Made by a program: the position numbers and the translations under genes
Notes under the pieces: generated by a model
What the model was told of the DNA's origin: nothing
Seen by the model: only the letters and a program-made list of their open reading frames with translations
Database searches by the model: none
Virus genome (UHGV): UHGV-0248180
From: a virus
Strand: one strand, 5' to 3'
DNA length: 37,455 nt
Shown: positions 3,133 through 16,088 of the stretch, piece after piece
Layout: the number at the start of each line of letters is the position of its first letter
Numbering within the stretch: the first letter of the stretch is position 1

Positions 3133-4101
<969 letters not shown>

Positions 4102-4105
4102 AGTT

Positions 4106-4135
4106 GTTTACTTTCTCCTAAAACTGTGATAGTAT
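4106..4135 (+). promoter_or_regulatory. T4 early-type promoter (GTTTAC-N18-TGaTAGTAT)
   Basis: -35-like GTTTAC 4106-4111, extended -10 TGn + TAGTAT 4127-4135. Confidence 0.55.
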
Positions 4136-4172
4136 ATTCACAGTTACTAATTAAAATATTTAAAGGAAACAC

Positions 4173-4490
4173 ATGAAAACGTATAAAGAATTTATTGCAG
4201 AATCTGCTGCAGGACAACGTGTAGAAGGCGGTTATATCTGGATTGAACAAGTTGAGCCGCCAAGTCGCACTTCTACAGGTAAATGGAAAATCACTGTTGA
4301 TGGTCCTGGTGGTAAACGTAGGACTCTTAAAGAAATTAACGGGTACTATGAAGAAGCTCTTTCTGACGCGGGTACTTATATGATGCAAATCATGATTAAA
4401 AACCCAGAAAATCGTTTTGCGGCTAGAGTTTTCCGCCGTATTGGAAATAAGCTTTATGATGCATATTCTAAAAACTTCCCTAAAGAATAA
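4173..4490 (+). CDS. Capsid-targeted internal protein (105 aa) with N-terminal CTS MKTYKEFIAE
   Basis: N-terminal capsid targeting sequence typical of T-even internal proteins; located in the ip locus next to e. Confidence 0.75.
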   Translation: MKTYKEFIAESAAGQRVEGGYIWIEQVEPPSRTSTGKWKITVDGPGGKRRTLKEINGYYEEALSDAGTYMMQIMIKNPENRFAARVFRRIGNKLYDAYSKNFPKE

Positions 4491-5661: not shown

Positions 5662-5987
5662 TGACAGACACACAGCTTTTCGAATATCTTTATTTTTCGC
5701 CAAAAACTATTAAAAATAAATTGGTGAATCATTTTGAAATTTTGGCAAATAACAACATTTTGAGCGAATTTTATCCCAAGCAATACAAATTACAAAAAGG
5801 CGTATTCAAAGGATGCAGAGTTTTGTGTACTGCTCCTAACGCGCAGTTAATGAATAAAATTCCATATTTTACCATGGAATTTATTGATGGACCTTTTAAA
5901 GGACTAATCACCCAAAGTTTAATGGCATATGATTCTGAGCCATTTTTAATTAAAGAACAATCTTGGATAAATTTATTTTCTAATTGA
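5658..5987 (+). CDS. hypothetical protein (109 aa)
   Basis: ORF starting in an ATGATGA overlap with upstream stop. Confidence 0.5.
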
Positions 5988-5994
5988 GGTTTAT

Positions 5995-6357
5995 ATGAAA
6001 GCATATCAAATTCTTGAAGGCACACATAAAGGTACTATTTATTTTGAAGATGGTATTCAAGCACGAATTATTGTCTCTAAAACCTTTAAAGAGGACTCTT
6101 TTGTAGACCCAGAAATTTTCTATGGTTTGCATGCCCGTGAAATTGAAATTGAGCAACAGCCTACAGTTAAAATTGAAGGTGGTCAACACCTGAACGTTAA
6201 CGTTCTGCGTCGCGAAACTCTGGAAGATGCAGTTAAGCATCCGGAAAAATATCCGCAGCTGACCATCCGTGTATCCGGTTATGCAGTTCGCTTTAACTCT
6301 CTGACTCCGGAACAGCAGCGCGACGTTATTGCTCGTACCTTTACTGAGAGTTTGTAA
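5995..6357 (+). CDS. Autonomous glycyl-radical cofactor, GrcA/YfiD-like (120 aa)
   Basis: C-terminal ~65 aa ([60 protein letters not shown]) match E. coli GrcA as I recall it, including glycyl-radical motif RVSGY; codon usage of that segment is host-like. Confidence 0.9.
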
Positions 6358-6578
6358 TGGCAAAGATAATTATTGAAGGTTCTAAAGATGTGCTAAATGC
6401 TTTCGCCGAGTGGTTTAGTAATTCAGGCGAACAGCAATTTAATGAAGCGTGGAACATAGGTGATATTGATGGAATTTATCCTACGACAGAAATTTCTGTT
6501 CAGGGATATGGCATTCATGAACCTATTCGTTTAGTTGAATATGATTTATGTACTGGTGAGGAAGTCAAATATGATTGA
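6357..6578 (+). CDS. hypothetical protein (73 aa)
   Basis: ORF, TAATG overlap with upstream gene. Confidence 0.45.
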   Translation: MAKIIIEGSKDVLNAFAEWFSNSGEQQFNEAWNIGDIDGIYPTTEISVQGYGIHEPIRLVEYDLCTGEEVKYD

Positions 6579-11467: not shown

Positions 11468-11490
11468 AGTCTCCTTCGGGAGACTTTTTT
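11468..11490 (+). terminator. Rho-independent terminator (AGTCTCC-TTCG-GGAGACT + T6)
   Basis: 7-bp stem, UUCG loop, T tract. Confidence 0.8.
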
Positions 11491-11500
11491 CATTTTACCG

Positions 11501-11530
11501 GTTTACTTTCCGTCTGAGCCGTGGTACTAT
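11501..11530 (+). promoter_or_regulatory. T4 early promoter (GTTTAC-N18-TGgTACTAT)
   Basis: GTTTAC 11501-11506; TGg TACTAT 11522-11530. Confidence 0.65.
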
Positions 11531-11558: not shown

Positions 11559-11747
11559 ATGAAAATTGAAGCACTTAATCAAGAAGGAAATATCTACGTC
11601 ATCATTAATGGTGATTTTTTCGTCGACATGGATGAAGTTACTAGTGAAGAACTTGTAGAATTTCTTAAGAAACGTTATAATATGTGTGATGAAGTTGCAA
11701 CTCACATGGCGTGTGCAATATTCTCTCTTTCATATGTGGTGGAATAA
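11559..11747 (+). CDS. hypothetical protein (62 aa)
   Basis: ORF with GGAG RBS (11548-11551). Confidence 0.5.
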
Positions 11748-11950
11748 TGATTAGTATCGAACAAGCGGATAAAATTAAGGAATTGGTAGCTTTAATTCGT
11801 AAAGCAGACGAGGAACTTAGTGACTTTGCTTGGTTTTCGTCAGGCATTGCAAATAAAGGCATTGATGAACTTGAAGCTAAAGTTGATAATGCTTTAGAAG
11901 CGTTAGATATGTTTCTTGATGAAATTATCGATCATAATACGAGAGTTTAA
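11747..11950 (+). CDS. hypothetical small acidic helical protein (67 aa), paralog family
   Basis: ORF; TAATG overlap; junction GGTGGAATAATGA. Confidence 0.5.
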   Translation: MISIEQADKIKELVALIRKADEELSDFAWFSSGIANKGIDELEAKVDNALEALDMFLDEIIDHNTRV

Positions 11951-11952
11951 GT

Positions 11953-12147
11953 ATGCTGACACGTGAACAGTTTGAAAAAATCATTAAATTAGCACGTGAT
12001 ATTGAAATAGATTCATACCAATTAGCAGTTGAGCATTGTGAAGGATATTCATACGATGGTATAGAAGCAGCTAAAAAGGATTTGGATAAATCTAAAGCTA
12101 AGTTAGTTCAATATCTTGAAATGATTAGGTGGAATAATGAAAACTGA
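11953..12147 (+). CDS. hypothetical small acidic helical protein (64 aa), paralog family (MLTREQFEKIIKL)
   Basis: ORF. Confidence 0.5.
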   Translation: MLTREQFEKIIKLARDIEIDSYQLAVEHCEGYSYDGIEAAKKDLDKSKAKLVQYLEMIRWNNEN

Positions 12148-12310
12148 AAAGCAGATGTTTTTAATGAAGCTAATTGAAGAATATGCTAATGCAGTTTCTG
12201 ACTATGAGTATTCTTCTCGGGAAAGAGGTACAGCTTTCGCAAAGGAAGAAATGAAAATCATGGTTGATGCTCACACAAAGCTTCAAAATTTTATTGAAAA
12301 CAACATTTAA
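12137..12310 (+). CDS. hypothetical small protein (57 aa), paralog family
   Basis: ORF below track cutoff; same GGTGGAATAATGA junction as at 11735. Confidence 0.4.
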   Translation: MKTEKQMFLMKLIEEYANAVSDYEYSSRERGTAFAKEEMKIMVDAHTKLQNFIENNI

Positions 12311-12312
12311 CG

Positions 12313-12342
12313 GTTTACAAGTTGGCAAGGTTATGGTATAGT
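12313..12342 (+). promoter_or_regulatory. T4 early promoter (GTTTAC-N18-TGgTATAGT)
   Basis: GTTTAC 12313-12318; TGg TATAGT 12334-12342. Confidence 0.65.
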
Positions 12343-12370
12343 AATCTTGTCAACTGCCGAGGAGAAGAGA

Positions 12371-12475
12371 ATGAAAGTTTTGCTTGTTGTGTATGTGATG
12401 ATTCAATATAATTACCCAATGTTTACTTATAATTTGGTGAACAACATTATTGATATGGTTCAGAGGAGTATGTAA
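12371..12475 (+). CDS. possible small hydrophobic leader peptide (34 aa)
   Basis: Strong GAGGAG RBS 12361-12366 and ATG 12371 just downstream of promoter; very short. Confidence 0.3.
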   Translation: MKVLLVVYVMIQYNYPMFTYNLVNNIIDMVQRSM

Positions 12476-13020
12476 TGATGGGAGAGGCGAAACGATTAGT
12501 ATTAGAAGTTAGTTCACTTTTTGGTGAATTGGCTATAGAAAAAGTAAATAATATGTATCGTTTGACGCAAGAAGACGATATGCTATATTTTACGCCTAGT
12601 GAAATCATTCATTTAACCCAAATTGAAAATCCTTATACTGATAAAATTGTAAGCATTAATGATGAGCATAAAATTCATTTTTATTCTTCATGCCCAGGAT
12701 TTAATATTGAAAGCGAGTCAATATGCTTATCAGTTATCCATTGGGATAGTTTTATAGATAAGATTAAATATTTTTATTATTCTAATGAAAGAAAACACAG
12801 TTTAAAATGGTTTAAAAATTGCAATGCTATTATTACTAACGCTTGCAATCAGAATGATGAAACTGTTTTAAATGTATCAAAATGTTATGAAGATGGAGAT
12901 GTCTTAACTATTCGTCAAATTGATGATTTTCGATCGCATATTGTCACATTTACCAAAGACGAAGCTATTGCGCTAAAGACTTATCTTGATTCTGTCATTC
13001 CAACTATGATTTCAAAGTGA
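12475..13020 (+). CDS. hypothetical protein (181 aa), paralog of 13027 ORF
   Basis: ORF with GGAG RBS; C-terminal (A/E)AxALKTYLDSVIPTM resembles EAMIKYLTTVTPSM of the next gene. Confidence 0.6.
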   Translation: MMGEAKRLVLEVSSLFGELAIEKVNNMYRLTQEDDMLYFTPSEIIHLTQIENPYTDKIVSINDEHKIHFYSSCPGFNIESESICLSVIHWDSFIDKIKYFYYSNERKHSLKWFKNCNAIITNACNQNDETVLNVSKCYEDGDVLTIRQIDDFRSHIVTFTKDEAIALKTYLDSVIPTMISK

Positions 13021-13026
13021 GGAAAT

Positions 13027-13548
13027 ATGTATATTTCAAGTGAAAGTGGTTTAATTCGTGTTGAATTTAAAAATGATATTTTCCTTATTCAAGGAGATGA
13101 TATTATTAAAATGAGTTATGACGAAATCAAGAAAATTTGTCATACTCTTGAAAGCCGTGGAAACGTAAATGCTGTTATTGATATTGGTGATTTATGGGTA
13201 ACGCTTTATAAAGTATCCGAAGGATTTAACATTGAAGATGAAAATAACATTTTAGCTATTGATAAAAGAACTGATTTGTTTGATGTATTAAAAGCCTATG
13301 AACAGTCAAACGGTGGAAGAAAAGCTGCATTGATTTATCAAAAACCGCATTCATGTGGAACTGCTTCAATCATTTCAAATATTGAAGACGAATCTGATAC
13401 TTATATGTGTGTTTTAAAAGCTGGTGGTGACCGTCATCCGGATTTTATTTCTATTCGTCAAAACAATGGAGAAATTTCATTATCAAAATCAGAAGCTGAA
13501 GCCATGATTAAGTATTTAACAACCGTTACGCCTTCAATGAAAGGATAA
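13027..13548 (+). CDS. hypothetical protein (173 aa), paralog of 12475 ORF
   Basis: ORF; shared C-terminal motif. Confidence 0.6.
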   Translation: MYISSESGLIRVEFKNDIFLIQGDDIIKMSYDEIKKICHTLESRGNVNAVIDIGDLWVTLYKVSEGFNIEDENNILAIDKRTDLFDVLKAYEQSNGGRKAALIYQKPHSCGTASIISNIEDESDTYMCVLKAGGDRHPDFISIRQNNGEISLSKSEAEAMIKYLTTVTPSMKG

Positions 13549-13550
13549 TT

Positions 13551-13997
13551 ATGATTATTAATGAAAACTCTTGGCACGTTCGTATGCATGATTTCTTTTA
13601 CTGGCAGCGTCCGAATTCTTTGTGTAAATATTTCTGGAAAATGGCGTGGACGTTCTTAGTTATCGGTGTTATTTGCATATCGGGGCTATTAGGTAGTTGG
13701 GTGGTAGGACAAGCCATTTTAAGCCAATTTGGCGTTACAGGATTCTGGCTTCTACACGCAGGCGGAACCTTATTTGGTGTACTGATATTTGCTACGATTG
13801 TCATTATTGCAGTAGGTATAGCATATATTATAGCTAAGATTTCAGGTTTATGGGAAGGAGTCAGGTATGATAGAGAGTGGAAGCGTCAACAAGACGAAGA
13901 AAATGGTATTGAACATCCTAAGAGTGTAATCGTTGAATACCTTAAAGCTAGTAAATCTAAAATCTGCCCTATGATAGAATTTAAGGATGTTAAATGA
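13551..13997 (+). CDS. hypothetical integral membrane protein (148 aa)
   Basis: ORF; long hydrophobic segments (WTFLVIGVICISGLLGSWVV... GTLFGVLIFATIVIIAVGIAYII). Confidence 0.6.
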   Translation: MIINENSWHVRMHDFFYWQRPNSLCKYFWKMAWTFLVIGVICISGLLGSWVVGQAILSQFGVTGFWLLHAGGTLFGVLIFATIVIIAVGIAYIIAKISGLWEGVRYDREWKRQQDEENGIEHPKSVIVEYLKASKSKICPMIEFKDVK

Positions 13998-15004
13998 AAA
14001 CAGTAATGAAAAGTTATTTTGGTAGTCATCTTTATGGAACTTCTACCCCAGAATCTGATGTAGATTTTAAAGAAATCTTTGTTCCTCCTGCTCGCGATAT
14101 TCTTATCGGAAATGTTAAAGAGCATATGAGTAAAAACACTAACAACACATCATCTAAAAACACTAAAGATGATATTGACCATGAACTATACAGTCTTAAG
14201 TATTTCTTTAAATTAGCAGCAGATGGTGAAACTGTAGCATTGGATATGCTCCACACTCCACCTGAACTTGTAGTTAAATCTGATTTGCCTGATGTATGGA
14301 AGTTTATTCAAGACAACCGTTCTCGTTTTTATACGACTAACATGAAATCATATTTAGGATATGTCCGCAAGCAAGCTTCTAAATACGGTGTCAAGGGTTC
14401 TCGTTTGGCTGCATTACGTGATGTATTGAAAGTAGTTAATCAAATCCCCGAGCAATGGGTTGATTACCAAGAAGACGGTTCCATTAAGCAGCGTCGCACT
14501 AAAGTTGAAGATATTAAGCATCGTCTTCCAGAAAACGAATTCTGTGAATGGGTATTCCATAATCATGAGAAAACCGGTCCACAAACGTTCTACACTGTGT
14601 TGGGTCGTAAATATCAGACAACACTTTCTCTTATTGAGCTTAAGCAGTCTTTGAATAAACTTGATGCCGAATACGGTGAACGTGCTCGTAAGGCTGAAGC
14701 GAATGAGGGCATTGACTGGAAAGCTCTGAGTCATGCTTGCCGTGGTGGACTCCAACTATTGGAAATTTACAAAACTGGTGACTTGGTTTATCCACTCAAA
14801 GATGCTCCATTTATTCTCGACGTGAAGTTGGGTAAACATCCATTTAAAACGGTTCAAGAGTTTTTGGAAGATGTGGTCGATCAAGTAGAAGCAGCATCTA
14901 CTGAAGCTTCTAAGAACGGTATGCAGCAAAAAGTAGACATGGGTTTCTGGGATGACTTCCTTGAGAAGGTCTATCTTGAAAACCACCGAAGTTATTATAA
15001 ATGA
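13994..15004 (+). CDS. Predicted nucleotidyltransferase (Pol-beta-like fold), 336 aa
   Basis: N-terminal signature GSHLYGTSTPESDVDF (GS-x10-DxD); ATGA overlap; followed by strong terminator. Confidence 0.7.
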   Translation: MKTVMKSYFGSHLYGTSTPESDVDFKEIFVPPARDILIGNVKEHMSKNTNNTSSKNTKDDIDHELYSLKYFFKLAADGETVALDMLHTPPELVVKSDLPDVWKFIQDNRSRFYTTNMKSYLGYVRKQASKYGVKGSRLAALRDVLKVVNQIPEQWVDYQEDGSIKQRRTKVEDIKHRLPENEFCEWVFHNHEKTGPQTFYTVLGRKYQTTLSLIELKQSLNKLDAEYGERARKAEANEGIDWKALSHACRGGLQLLEIYKTGDLVYPLKDAPFILDVKLGKHPFKTVQEFLEDVVDQVEAASTEASKNGMQQKVDMGFWDDFLEKVYLENHRSYYK

Positions 15005-15006
15005 TA

Positions 15007-15031
15007 GGGAGCCTTCGGGCTCCCTTTTTTT
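15007..15031 (+). terminator. Rho-independent terminator (GGGAGCC-TTCG-GGCTCCC + T7)
   Basis: Perfect 7-bp GC-rich stem, UUCG loop, T tract. Confidence 0.85.
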
Positions 15032-15055
15032 ATTTCAAAAATTTTTCACAAAACT

Positions 15056-15085
15056 GTTTACAAGCATAAAGCTTTATGGTACTAT
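15056..15085 (+). promoter_or_regulatory. T4 early promoter (GTTTAC-N18-TGgTACTAT) with conserved leader ACAACTATCAACT
   Basis: GTTTAC 15056-15061; TGg TACTAT 15077-15085. Confidence 0.65.
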
Positions 15086-15119
15086 ACAACTATCAACTGA
15101 TACGGATTTGGAGAATAAA

Positions 15120-16088
15120 ATGAAAACTGTAACTATTAATAAGGGTATCTATTTCGGTAAAGAAATCTCTGGAACTTTTGAGCTCTTAGGCGAATGGTTC
15201 CCAGATAATGCTCCGGTAGATGCACAAGGAGATGGTAAAGTTTTTGTTGAAATTGACGGTAAACGTCGCGGTGTTTGGGTTTACAAATCCGATATTTCAT
15301 ATGATGGTGTAAAAGTTGAAGAAGTTAAAGAATCATATGAAGATATGAAAACCCGCATTAATAAAAGATTTAATGTTATGGGAATGATGACGAATGGTAT
15401 TATTAACGGAAACATTCGTTCATTAATTATCTCTGGTGCGGCAGGTATTGGTAAAACGTATTCTTTAGATAAAGCTTTAAATAAAGCAAATGATGTTGGA
15501 TACATTGAGTATAAAAGCATTAATGGTAAAATCTCTGGTATCGGTCTTTATGAGCAGCTCTGGAATAATCGTGAAGAGAATTCTGTCCTTTTGATTGATG
15601 ATGTGGATGTTTTCTCTGATATGGACATTCTTAATCTTCTAAAAGCTGCTCTGGACACTGGAGAGACCCGTAAAGTCTGCTGGAGCACTGCATCTTCTTA
15701 CTTAGAAGAAAAAGGCATTGACCGTGAGTTTGAATTTAAAGGAACGATTGTTTTTATCACAAACGTTGACATTGACCGCGAATTAGATCGCGGAACTAAA
15801 CTTGCTCCACACCTACAAGCATTAGTGTCCCGCTCAGTTTATTTAGATTTAGGTGTTCACACTAATGAAGAAATTATGGTCAGGGTTGAAGATGTTATTC
15901 TTTCAACTGACATGATGCAAAAGCGTGGTCTTTCTGATGAAGAAACTTATAAAGCATTATCATGGATGAAAGTTAATGTTAATCGTTTACGCAATGTTTC
16001 ACTGCGTACTGCTCTTTATCTTGCTGACTTTATTATGACCGACAAAAACGGTTGGGAAGAAATCGCTGAGGTTACTCTTCTGAAATAA
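15120..16088 (+). CDS. Predicted AAA+-type P-loop ATPase (322 aa)
   Basis: Walker A GAAGIGKT, Walker B VLLIDDVD, sensor-like FITN; GGAG RBS; track start 14952 reads through the promoter. Confidence 0.7.
   Translation: MKTVTINKGIYFGKEISGTFELLGEWFPDNAPVDAQGDGKVFVEIDGKRRGVWVYKSDISYDGVKVEEVKESYEDMKTRINKRFNVMGMMTNGIINGNIRSLIISGAAGIGKTYSLDKALNKANDVGYIEYKSINGKISGIGLYEQLWNNREENSVLLIDDVDVFSDMDILNLLKAALDTGETRKVCWSTASSYLEEKGIDREFEFKGTIVFITNVDIDRELDRGTKLAPHLQALVSRSVYLDLGVHTNEEIMVRVEDVILSTDMMQKRGLSDEETYKALSWMKVNVNRLRNVSLRTALYLADFIMTDKNGWEEIAEVTLLK

Follow-up and report, generated by a model that had tools for sequence, protein, structure and literature searches.

This study concerns a pair of adjacent genes at positions 12475-13548 of UHGV virus genome UHGV-0248180, a stretch of 37,455 nucleotides (nt) referred to here as the window. 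The window belongs to a T4-like phage (Tequatrovirus), the 6-kb stretch at the pair matching hundreds of Tequatrovirus genomes at 95-97% identity, and the genes in this part of it run in the order tk, rI.1, rI, rI.-1, mobD.5, mobD.4, mobD.3, an open reading frame (ORF) of 57 amino acids (aa), mobD.2, mobD.1, ORF2, a membrane protein gene, nrdC.11 and nrdC.10. The pair itself consists of ORF1, which is mobD.1 (y05I; 12475-13020, + strand, 181 aa), and its paralog ORF2 (13027-13548, + strand, 173 aa). Both had been picked out in an original prediction, made from the nucleotide sequence alone, as tandem paralogs with related endings, and their coordinates, lengths and C-terminal strings (EAIALKTYLDSVIPTM and EAMIKYLTTVTPSM, respectively) were all confirmed. 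A third y05I-type copy was sought in the window and not found.

The similarity between the two proteins extends over their whole length. The BLASTP alignment spans 176 aa with 30% identity and 51% positives (E=3e-11), and the Smith-Waterman score of 116 compares with 31.1 +/- 5.4 for 2000 shuffles (z=15.7). Without the last ~20 residues a score of 89 is retained, against 30.4 +/- 5.2 for the shuffles (z=11.4), and the relationship does not therefore hang on the C-terminal motif from which it was first suspected. Both proteins score above the gathering cut-offs of the Pfam families T4_y05I_N (PF24449, cut-off 24.9 bits; 130.3 bits for ORF1 and 112.7 bits for ORF2) and T4_y05I_C (PF24448, cut-off 27 bits; 75.1 and 84.3 bits), and both match PHROG 1502 over the whole profile (E=5e-81 and E=2e-66). 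They are full-length paralogs of the y05I family, then, and related far beyond chance. Purifying selection acts on both genes, dN/dS (the ratio of non-synonymous to synonymous substitution rates) being 0.08-0.22 in all pairs with dS > 0.1. NCBIfam gave no matches for the five proteins of the locus. The two genes share a reading frame, with TGA GGA AAT between them (13018-13029); there is no sign of read-through and this is probably coincidence.

ORF1 is 84.5% identical to T4 MobD.1 by tblastn (85% by alignment), groups with it in a neighbour-joining tree, and occupies the same position, downstream of mobD.2-mobD.5 and upstream of nrdC.11, both genes directly following mobD.2. ORF2 has 28% identity to MobD.1 in the alignment and, together with a T2-type relative, falls outside the MobD.1 orthologues of three genera, from which this paralog clade is separated by identities of 22-31%. 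Such branching, judged from the sequences, points to an old duplication or to the import of the second copy, and excludes a recent tandem copy.

The family is small. When 1.84 billion representative proteins, a library without source names in which the origin of only some members could be traced, were searched exhaustively with a profile, just 28 clusters came back, and every member with a traced source comes from a T-even-type phage. Full-length members are found in Tequatrovirus, Mosigvirus and Dhakavirus, and stand-alone proteins of 67-87 aa corresponding to the C-terminal domain alone (PHROG 7763) in Gelderlandvirus and in Klebsiella T4-like phages. This C-terminal domain, termed repeat III below, is the most conserved part of the family and carries its hallmark, (F/L)TKxEAxAL..YL..V(I/T)P(T/S)M, which includes the string that had first drawn attention to the pair. 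All aligned members are acidic (isoelectric point (pI) 4.1-5.8, net charge -1.5 to -22) except the stand-alone protein P0058 (pI 9.2). The near-invariant residues of the N-terminal repeats I and II are mostly Glu, Asp and Gln, and E22, Q32, D35, E43, E81 and D142 are among the near-invariant positions. Pfam and PHROGs already list the family, and its fold type is known. In the literature, y05I, mobD.1, DUF7438 and the accessions in Pfam and PHROGs led to a 2010 review of T4 mobile elements alone, and to no functional data.

Structure prediction gives a picture of how these proteins may be built. The AlphaFold2 (AF2) model of ORF2, computed from a 27-sequence alignment, has a mean predicted local distance difference test (pLDDT) of 87.8 and a DSSP order of strands (b) and helices (a) of bbbba-bbbba-bbbbba; that of ORF1 is confident at residues 10-100 and weaker in its C-terminal part. 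Each protein, small, acidic and cytoplasmic in our reading, is thus predicted to comprise three beta-beta-beta-beta-alpha repeats, in the layout of eukaryotic Pur-alpha. The models adopt the PC4-like/PUR domain fold (CATH 2.30.31; Pur-alpha type), with repeats I and II predicted to form one intramolecular PC4-like/PUR-type domain (aa 8-104 of ORF1, nt 12496-12786, matching PF24449; aa 3-95 of ORF2, nt 13033-13311) and repeat III a half-domain (aa 109-178 of ORF1, nt 12799-13008, matching PF24448; aa 102-171 of ORF2, nt 13330-13539). The third repeat is akin to the first, with a probability of 94% and E=1.5e-7 when the repeat I and repeat III profiles are compared with hhalign; repeat II showed no significant relation to repeat I or III by the same method, the I-III relationship being the only one detectable.

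The top matches of the models in fold searches were Pur-alpha, the guide-RNA matchmakers MRP1/2, Whirly and PC4, and PBF-2 p24 was also a structural neighbour. Searches at the sequence level returned no counterpart to these. No match to PurA (PF04845) was found in Pfam at E<=0.1, profile searches of the sequences in the Protein Data Bank (PDB) gave nothing below E=0.3 with either the full family or repeat III alone (AcrIIC5, at an insignificant E=0.36, was a weak match), and neither a Whirly (PF08536) profile match nor the KGKAAL motif of that family was present. The likeness to Pur-alpha, as seen in the predicted models, is one of fold only, without a sequence link to PUR, Whirly or solved structures.

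Downstream of the pair lie the membrane protein and nucleotidyltransferase (NTase) genes that the original prediction had described there. The first (13551-13997, + strand) encodes a small, putative inner-membrane protein of 148 aa with hydrophobic blocks at aa ~31-55 and ~66-101, apparently two transmembrane segments by hydropathy scan, and matches the PHROG 944 'membrane protein' family (E=1.4e-43). Its conserved motifs are MIINxNSWH..RPxSLCxYFW at the N-terminus and the basic KSIIVEFLKARKxKVCP at the C-terminus. The second (13994-15004, + strand, 336 aa) is NrdC.11 (PHROG 388), a nucleotidyltransferase of the Pol-beta superfamily which belongs to the RlaP family (PF10127), scoring 44 bits against a cut-off of 23 and carrying the catalytic motif GSHLYGTSTPESDVD (GS-x11-DVD) in its translation. 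T4 NrdC.11 is likewise placed in the RlaP family in a 2025 preprint, where RlaP enzymes are shown to add one or two nucleoside monophosphates onto the 3'-OH of damaged RNAs and to restore tRNA function (PMC12776372).

The strength of these associations was assessed in a set of 22 mobD-free loci, comprising that of the window and those of 21 relatives, in which ORFs were profile-searched; the set spans Tequatrovirus, Mosigvirus, Dhakavirus, Gelderlandvirus and unclassified Klebsiella T4-like phages. In all 22 a gene with repeat III (y05I_C) stands directly upstream of the membrane gene, the junctions checked ranging from an 11-nt overlap to a gap of ~10 nt, and in all 22 NrdC.11 is found further downstream, either overlapping the membrane gene or following it after 0.5-1.2 kb of small inserted genes. 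A gene for the AAA-type NrdC.10 comes next in most loci and was undetected in three. The order y05I gene, membrane gene, NrdC.11 is therefore conserved, as the operon inferred from the single sequence would have it, and the tightest conserved partner of the y05I family is the membrane protein, not the NTase. A search of the word-indexed kind for homologues of the membrane protein recovered only two close relatives. The 84 extra N-terminal positions of the PHROG 944 profile were considered as a possible fused repeat III and this found no support, the stand-alone repeat-III proteins having no PHROG 944 match.

The copy number of the upstream genes varies within the set. Two full-length tandem genes are found in Tequatrovirus, whilst the Gelderlandvirus-type loci L005, L019 and L022 have two stand-alone repeat-III genes, so that tandem copies have arisen independently more than once. 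One of the latter, that of Salmonella phage SEA1 (L005), contains the module of repeat III and membrane gene twice, at 3501-4460 and 5763-6487. The C-terminus of the first SEA1 membrane copy is of the rI.-1/DUF5856 type (...FYQLKYLLTLE; PHROG 858 match), which suggests a recombination junction. The membrane-gene allele of the window is itself a rare one, with a DNA-level match in 8 of 444 phage records; the protein shares 33% identity with that of the allele common in Tequatrovirus and 39% with its Dhakavirus equivalent, and the occurrence of such an allele inside a region of 95-97% identity suggests cassette exchange.

The pair and its neighbours have the appearance of a single transcription unit, expressed early. 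A T4-type early promoter motif, GTTTACAAGTTGGCAAGGTTATGGTATAGT, with a sigma-70 -35 hexamer and an extended -10 element (10 of 12 consensus positions, with TG), lies at 12313-12342 (+ strand) and is kept ahead of mobD.2 in T4. It fits GTTTAC-N15-TGGTATAGT without a mismatch, being one of three such sites in the window. A predicted intrinsic terminator, AGGGAGCCTTCGGGCTCCCT followed by a T-run, was found by scanning at 15006-15025 (+ strand), and the annotation of phages NR1 and SA20RB has a terminator in the same position; the only other predicted nearby, at 11468-11485 after rI.-1, is also annotated in relatives. Ahead of nrdC.10, at 15056-15085, another early-promoter motif is found. Thus the promoter and terminator motifs, as read from the sequence, bracket a putative unit exactly from mobD.2 to nrdC.11, and no middle or late promoter motifs were found when sought in 12300-15100. 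Within the unit the genes are tightly joined: the last A of the mobD.2 TAA stop is the first letter of the mobD.1 ATG, ORF1 and ORF2 are separated by 6 nt holding a GAGG Shine-Dalgarno sequence, the gap from ORF2 to the membrane gene is 2 nt, and the membrane gene and the NTase gene overlap by 4 nt (ATGA). Junctions, bracketing motifs and conserved order all support the functionally linked operon that had been proposed, together with its early promoter. The further claim that the pair stands at the head of the NTase transcription unit was borne out in part. There is a weaker early-promoter motif at 11501-11530 with no predicted terminator before 15006, and the status of the pair therefore depends on the start site: it heads the unit only if the candidate promoter at 12313 fires, as transcription from the 11501 motif could read through.

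A possible leader peptide had also been suggested at 12371-12475. The ORF is there (+ strand): it is mobD.2 by T4 annotation, a small hydrophobic protein of 34 aa in a conserved family (PHROG 3515, E=1e-21), and it is translationally coupled to mobD.1 through the overlap of stop and start, with other genes taking its place in some relatives. Attenuation by such a peptide was rejected, since no terminator-like site is found in 12343-12480, and a regulatory role is in consequence unsupported.

Some further observations concern the surroundings of this unit. Across the window, nine matches to the T4 early-promoter pattern GTTTAC-N15-TGGTATANT with no more than two mismatches were found, all on the + strand, against an expectation of 0.46; they start at 3997, 7118, 11501, 12313, 15056, 16495, 19469, 27147 and 32579 and provide a map of likely early transcription starts. 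Just upstream of the pair, at 11747-12310, is a second tandem paralog array of three ORFs (67, 64 and 57 aa; T4 mobD.4, mobD.3 and mobD.2a-like), all of the DUF7438 family (E 1e-15 to 1e-17), of which further copies occur in relatives. In three metagenome contigs (L023, L024 and L025) a DUF7438 gene and a Phage_tudor gene stand in the place of mobD.2. The mechanical ORF list has nrdC.10 starting at the ATG at 14952 (14952-16088), which would span both the terminator at 15006-15025 and the motif at 15056-15085; the start equivalent to 15117 (323 aa), as in the annotation of relatives, is the likelier one.

Comparison with T4 itself reveals that the classical phage lacks half of this module. By blastn the window is homologous to T4 up to 13045 and again from 13993, and instead of the intervening segment (13046-13992, + strand), which contains the membrane gene and the body of ORF2, T4 has a cassette carrying the HNH homing endonuclease gene mobD (NC_000866 56447-57257; locus L002). 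T4 still has the ribosome-binding site and first six codons (MFISSG) of ORF2 as well as the flanking homology, and it follows that ORF2 and the membrane gene gave way to the mobD cassette. Phage records with mobD number 47, all at identities of at least 99%, and those with ORF2 about 444-480. In the 2010 review mobD is listed as a free-standing gene located between nrdC.11 and mobD.1, its target being given as unknown; the window carries the mobD-free allele of this insertion site.

Other rearrangements have occurred among relatives. In six contigs a hybrid gene stands in place of the tandem pair, as at L023:3001-3540, where (as in the metagenome contigs L024 and L025) a protein of 179 aa joins residues ~1-130 of MobD.1 to the last ~50 residues of the paralog; it is presumably a deletion produced by recombination between the two copies, and its natural occurrence implies that parts of MobD.1 and the paralog are interchangeable. 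A metagenomic protein of 210 aa, P0045, in which residues 1-51 of MobD.1 are fused to NrdC.11's C-terminal half, appears to be a deletion product missing most of the module. In NR1 and ECO4 the ORF2 gene is broken into pieces, and in some T2 records fragmentation apparently affects both genes. Such losses, splits and hybrids mark the module as dispensable and plastic.

How might these proteins work? We favour, at a probability of roughly 0.45, a composite reading in which the y05I proteins form an early accessory module, pairing via repeat III and working with the membrane protein, with a ligand that is likelier to be a protein. In Pur-alpha, repeat III is the dimerisation half-domain, through which Pur-alpha/Pur-beta heterodimers are also allowed (PMC7549692). 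By analogy with Pur-alpha and with the single-repeat PC4-like proteins, the phage half-domain would pair with another repeat III to give dimers, and the existence of stand-alone repeat-III proteins, which resemble the homodimeric Borrelia Pur-alpha and PC4, speaks for this. Where two copies are encoded side by side, the fold would permit a MobD.1/paralog heterodimer. Such a dimer would act at the inner membrane with the small protein encoded directly downstream, and the pair, the membrane protein and NrdC.11 would together make up an early, dispensable host-interaction module transcribed from 12313 to 15006. Since the family is acidic, with Glu, Asp and Gln making up most of its conserved residues, free nucleic acid is a less likely ligand than a basic protein surface of host or phage origin, for which the membrane protein's basic tail is a possibility; on sequence grounds this acidity argues against the binding of single-stranded DNA or RNA. 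A more specific form of the proposal, that the proteins are a viral counterpart of Pur-alpha, an acidic homo- or heterodimeric adaptor docked on the membrane protein and controlling or localising NrdC.11, we regard as doubtful.

Several points weigh against the composite reading. T4 has kept MobD.1 in the absence of the membrane protein, so that MobD.1 may function alone. Only one copy is present in Mosigvirus, in Dhakavirus and in several loci of Klebsiella phages, which means that function does not require a heterodimer. No fusion of repeat III to the membrane protein was found when sought, and confidence in the ORF1 model is low over its C-terminal domain (pLDDT 51-69). We infer both dimerisation and the heterodimer from the analogy of the fold. 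Binding of single-stranded nucleic acid is the rule for nearly all PC4-like, PUR and Whirly proteins that have been characterised, and the neighbouring NTase belongs to a family acting on RNA 3' ends; each of these points speaks for an explanation in terms of RNA.

That explanation is the principal rival. It holds that the pair are RNA-binding cofactors whose PUR/PC4-like domains present damaged tRNA ends to NrdC.11, which then restores the 3' nucleotides as part of T-even tRNA repair against host anticodon or acceptor nucleases. The fold family to which the models were matched (Pur-alpha, MRP1/2, Whirly, PC4) is overwhelmingly one of single-stranded DNA and RNA binders, the NTase is downstream in every locus examined, and the RlaP enzymes, among which T4 NrdC.11 is counted in the preprint (PMC12776372), repair damaged RNA 3' ends. 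However, the acidity of the family includes repeats I and II, where it is acidic or polar residues that are conserved and not basic or aromatic ones, and in several genera small unrelated genes part the NTase from the pair, whereas the membrane gene is never parted from it. Many phages, moreover, have repeat III only, which is the minor nucleic-acid-binding part of Pur-alpha (PMC7549692), and an obligatory membrane-protein partner would go unexplained. On balance we consider a role as RNA cofactors possible but unlikely.

Slightly less probable again is the suggestion that the two paralogs have independent specificities, each forming homodimers and acting alone as an acidic decoy for, or inhibitor of, a separate target in the host or a competitor, such as a defence protein or a nucleic-acid-binding protein that it imitates; duplication would then represent arms-race diversification and not partnership. 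Strong negative charge is typical of phage mimic and inhibitor proteins, and we count it in favour of this proposal. The divergence of the paralog clade from the MobD.1 orthologues of three genera (22-31% identity) is old, copy number changes between one and two from phage to phage with losses, pseudogenes and hybrids common, and the unit has early-promoter motifs only. Set against this, no anti-defence protein was prominent in the fold and sequence searches, the AcrIIC5 match being insignificant, and the strict adjacency of the membrane gene is again left without explanation. It is also repeat III that is most conserved between the paralogs, as a shared interface would predict.

Pfam names the family 'y05I-like putative transcription factor', and structural neighbours such as Pur-alpha, PBF-2 p24 and PC4 are indeed described as transcription regulators, but we find it very improbable that the pair are DNA-binding regulators of phage or host promoters, since the label appears to be based on fold resemblance alone with no paper on the family found, the genes are dispensable, often lost and coupled to one for a membrane protein, Pfam revealed neither a helix-turn-helix nor any other DNA-reading motif, and the proteins, unlike the well-studied nucleic-acid binders of this fold, are acidic, which is our main reason for not adopting the name.

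The rI-nrdC region of T4 is rich in early genes of unknown function, and MobD.1 has previously had only its fold-derived Pfam name. The y05I family now gains a concrete predicted architecture of three PUR-like repeats, and its module is connected to NrdC.11 and thereby, following the recent preprint, to a family of RNA-repair NTases. What is new here is the Pur-alpha-like reading, the strict link to a membrane protein and the recognition of T4 as a natural deletion of half the module; as the laboratory phage lacks both ORF2 and the membrane gene, mutant work would call for mobD-free T-even phages. If the more specific adaptor proposal, which we regard as doubtful, were true, a membrane-tethered module for RNA repair or host takeover would have been lost by classical T4 to the mobD homing endonuclease, which would explain its absence from T4 genetics. 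These results offer leads for research on T-even accessory genes and on phage RNA repair, and overturn nothing that is known.

Amongst known systems the closest is T4 MobD.1 (Y05I_BPT4), of which ORF1 is the orthologue; ORF2 has the same two-domain architecture but represents a separate, deeply branching lineage without a counterpart in T4. Also comparable are the RNA-repair operons of the RlaP family (RtcB-RlaP-RtcA and relatives), where the shared feature is the membership of NrdC.11; the part of the phage locus examined showed no gene for an RNA ligase, RtcA or a kinase-phosphatase, and PUR-like proteins and a membrane protein are not among the parts of these operons described in the portion of the source drawn on here. 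The SsgA-like proteins of actinomycetes (PDB 3cm1) offer an analogy only, being one-domain proteins without repeat III, with no sequence relationship and an unrelated biology. The single-repeat PC4-like dimers, which include Borrelia Bpur (3n8b/3nm7), human PC4, the phage T5 PC4 homologue (4bg7) and YdbC, are binders of single-stranded DNA or RNA with well-described binding surfaces, whereas the phage repeat III has a conserved YL..VIPTM(K) tail of its own and is usually acidic. A structural parallel to the whole protein is eukaryotic Pur-alpha (PURA; PDB 3k44, 5fgo, 8chw), which a 2020 review gives as the only reported protein with PC4-like domains of type I as well as of type II (PMC7549692). 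The same three-repeat layout is predicted by the models for the phage proteins, but these are about half its size, acidic, without detectable sequence relationship to it, and genetically tied to a membrane protein.

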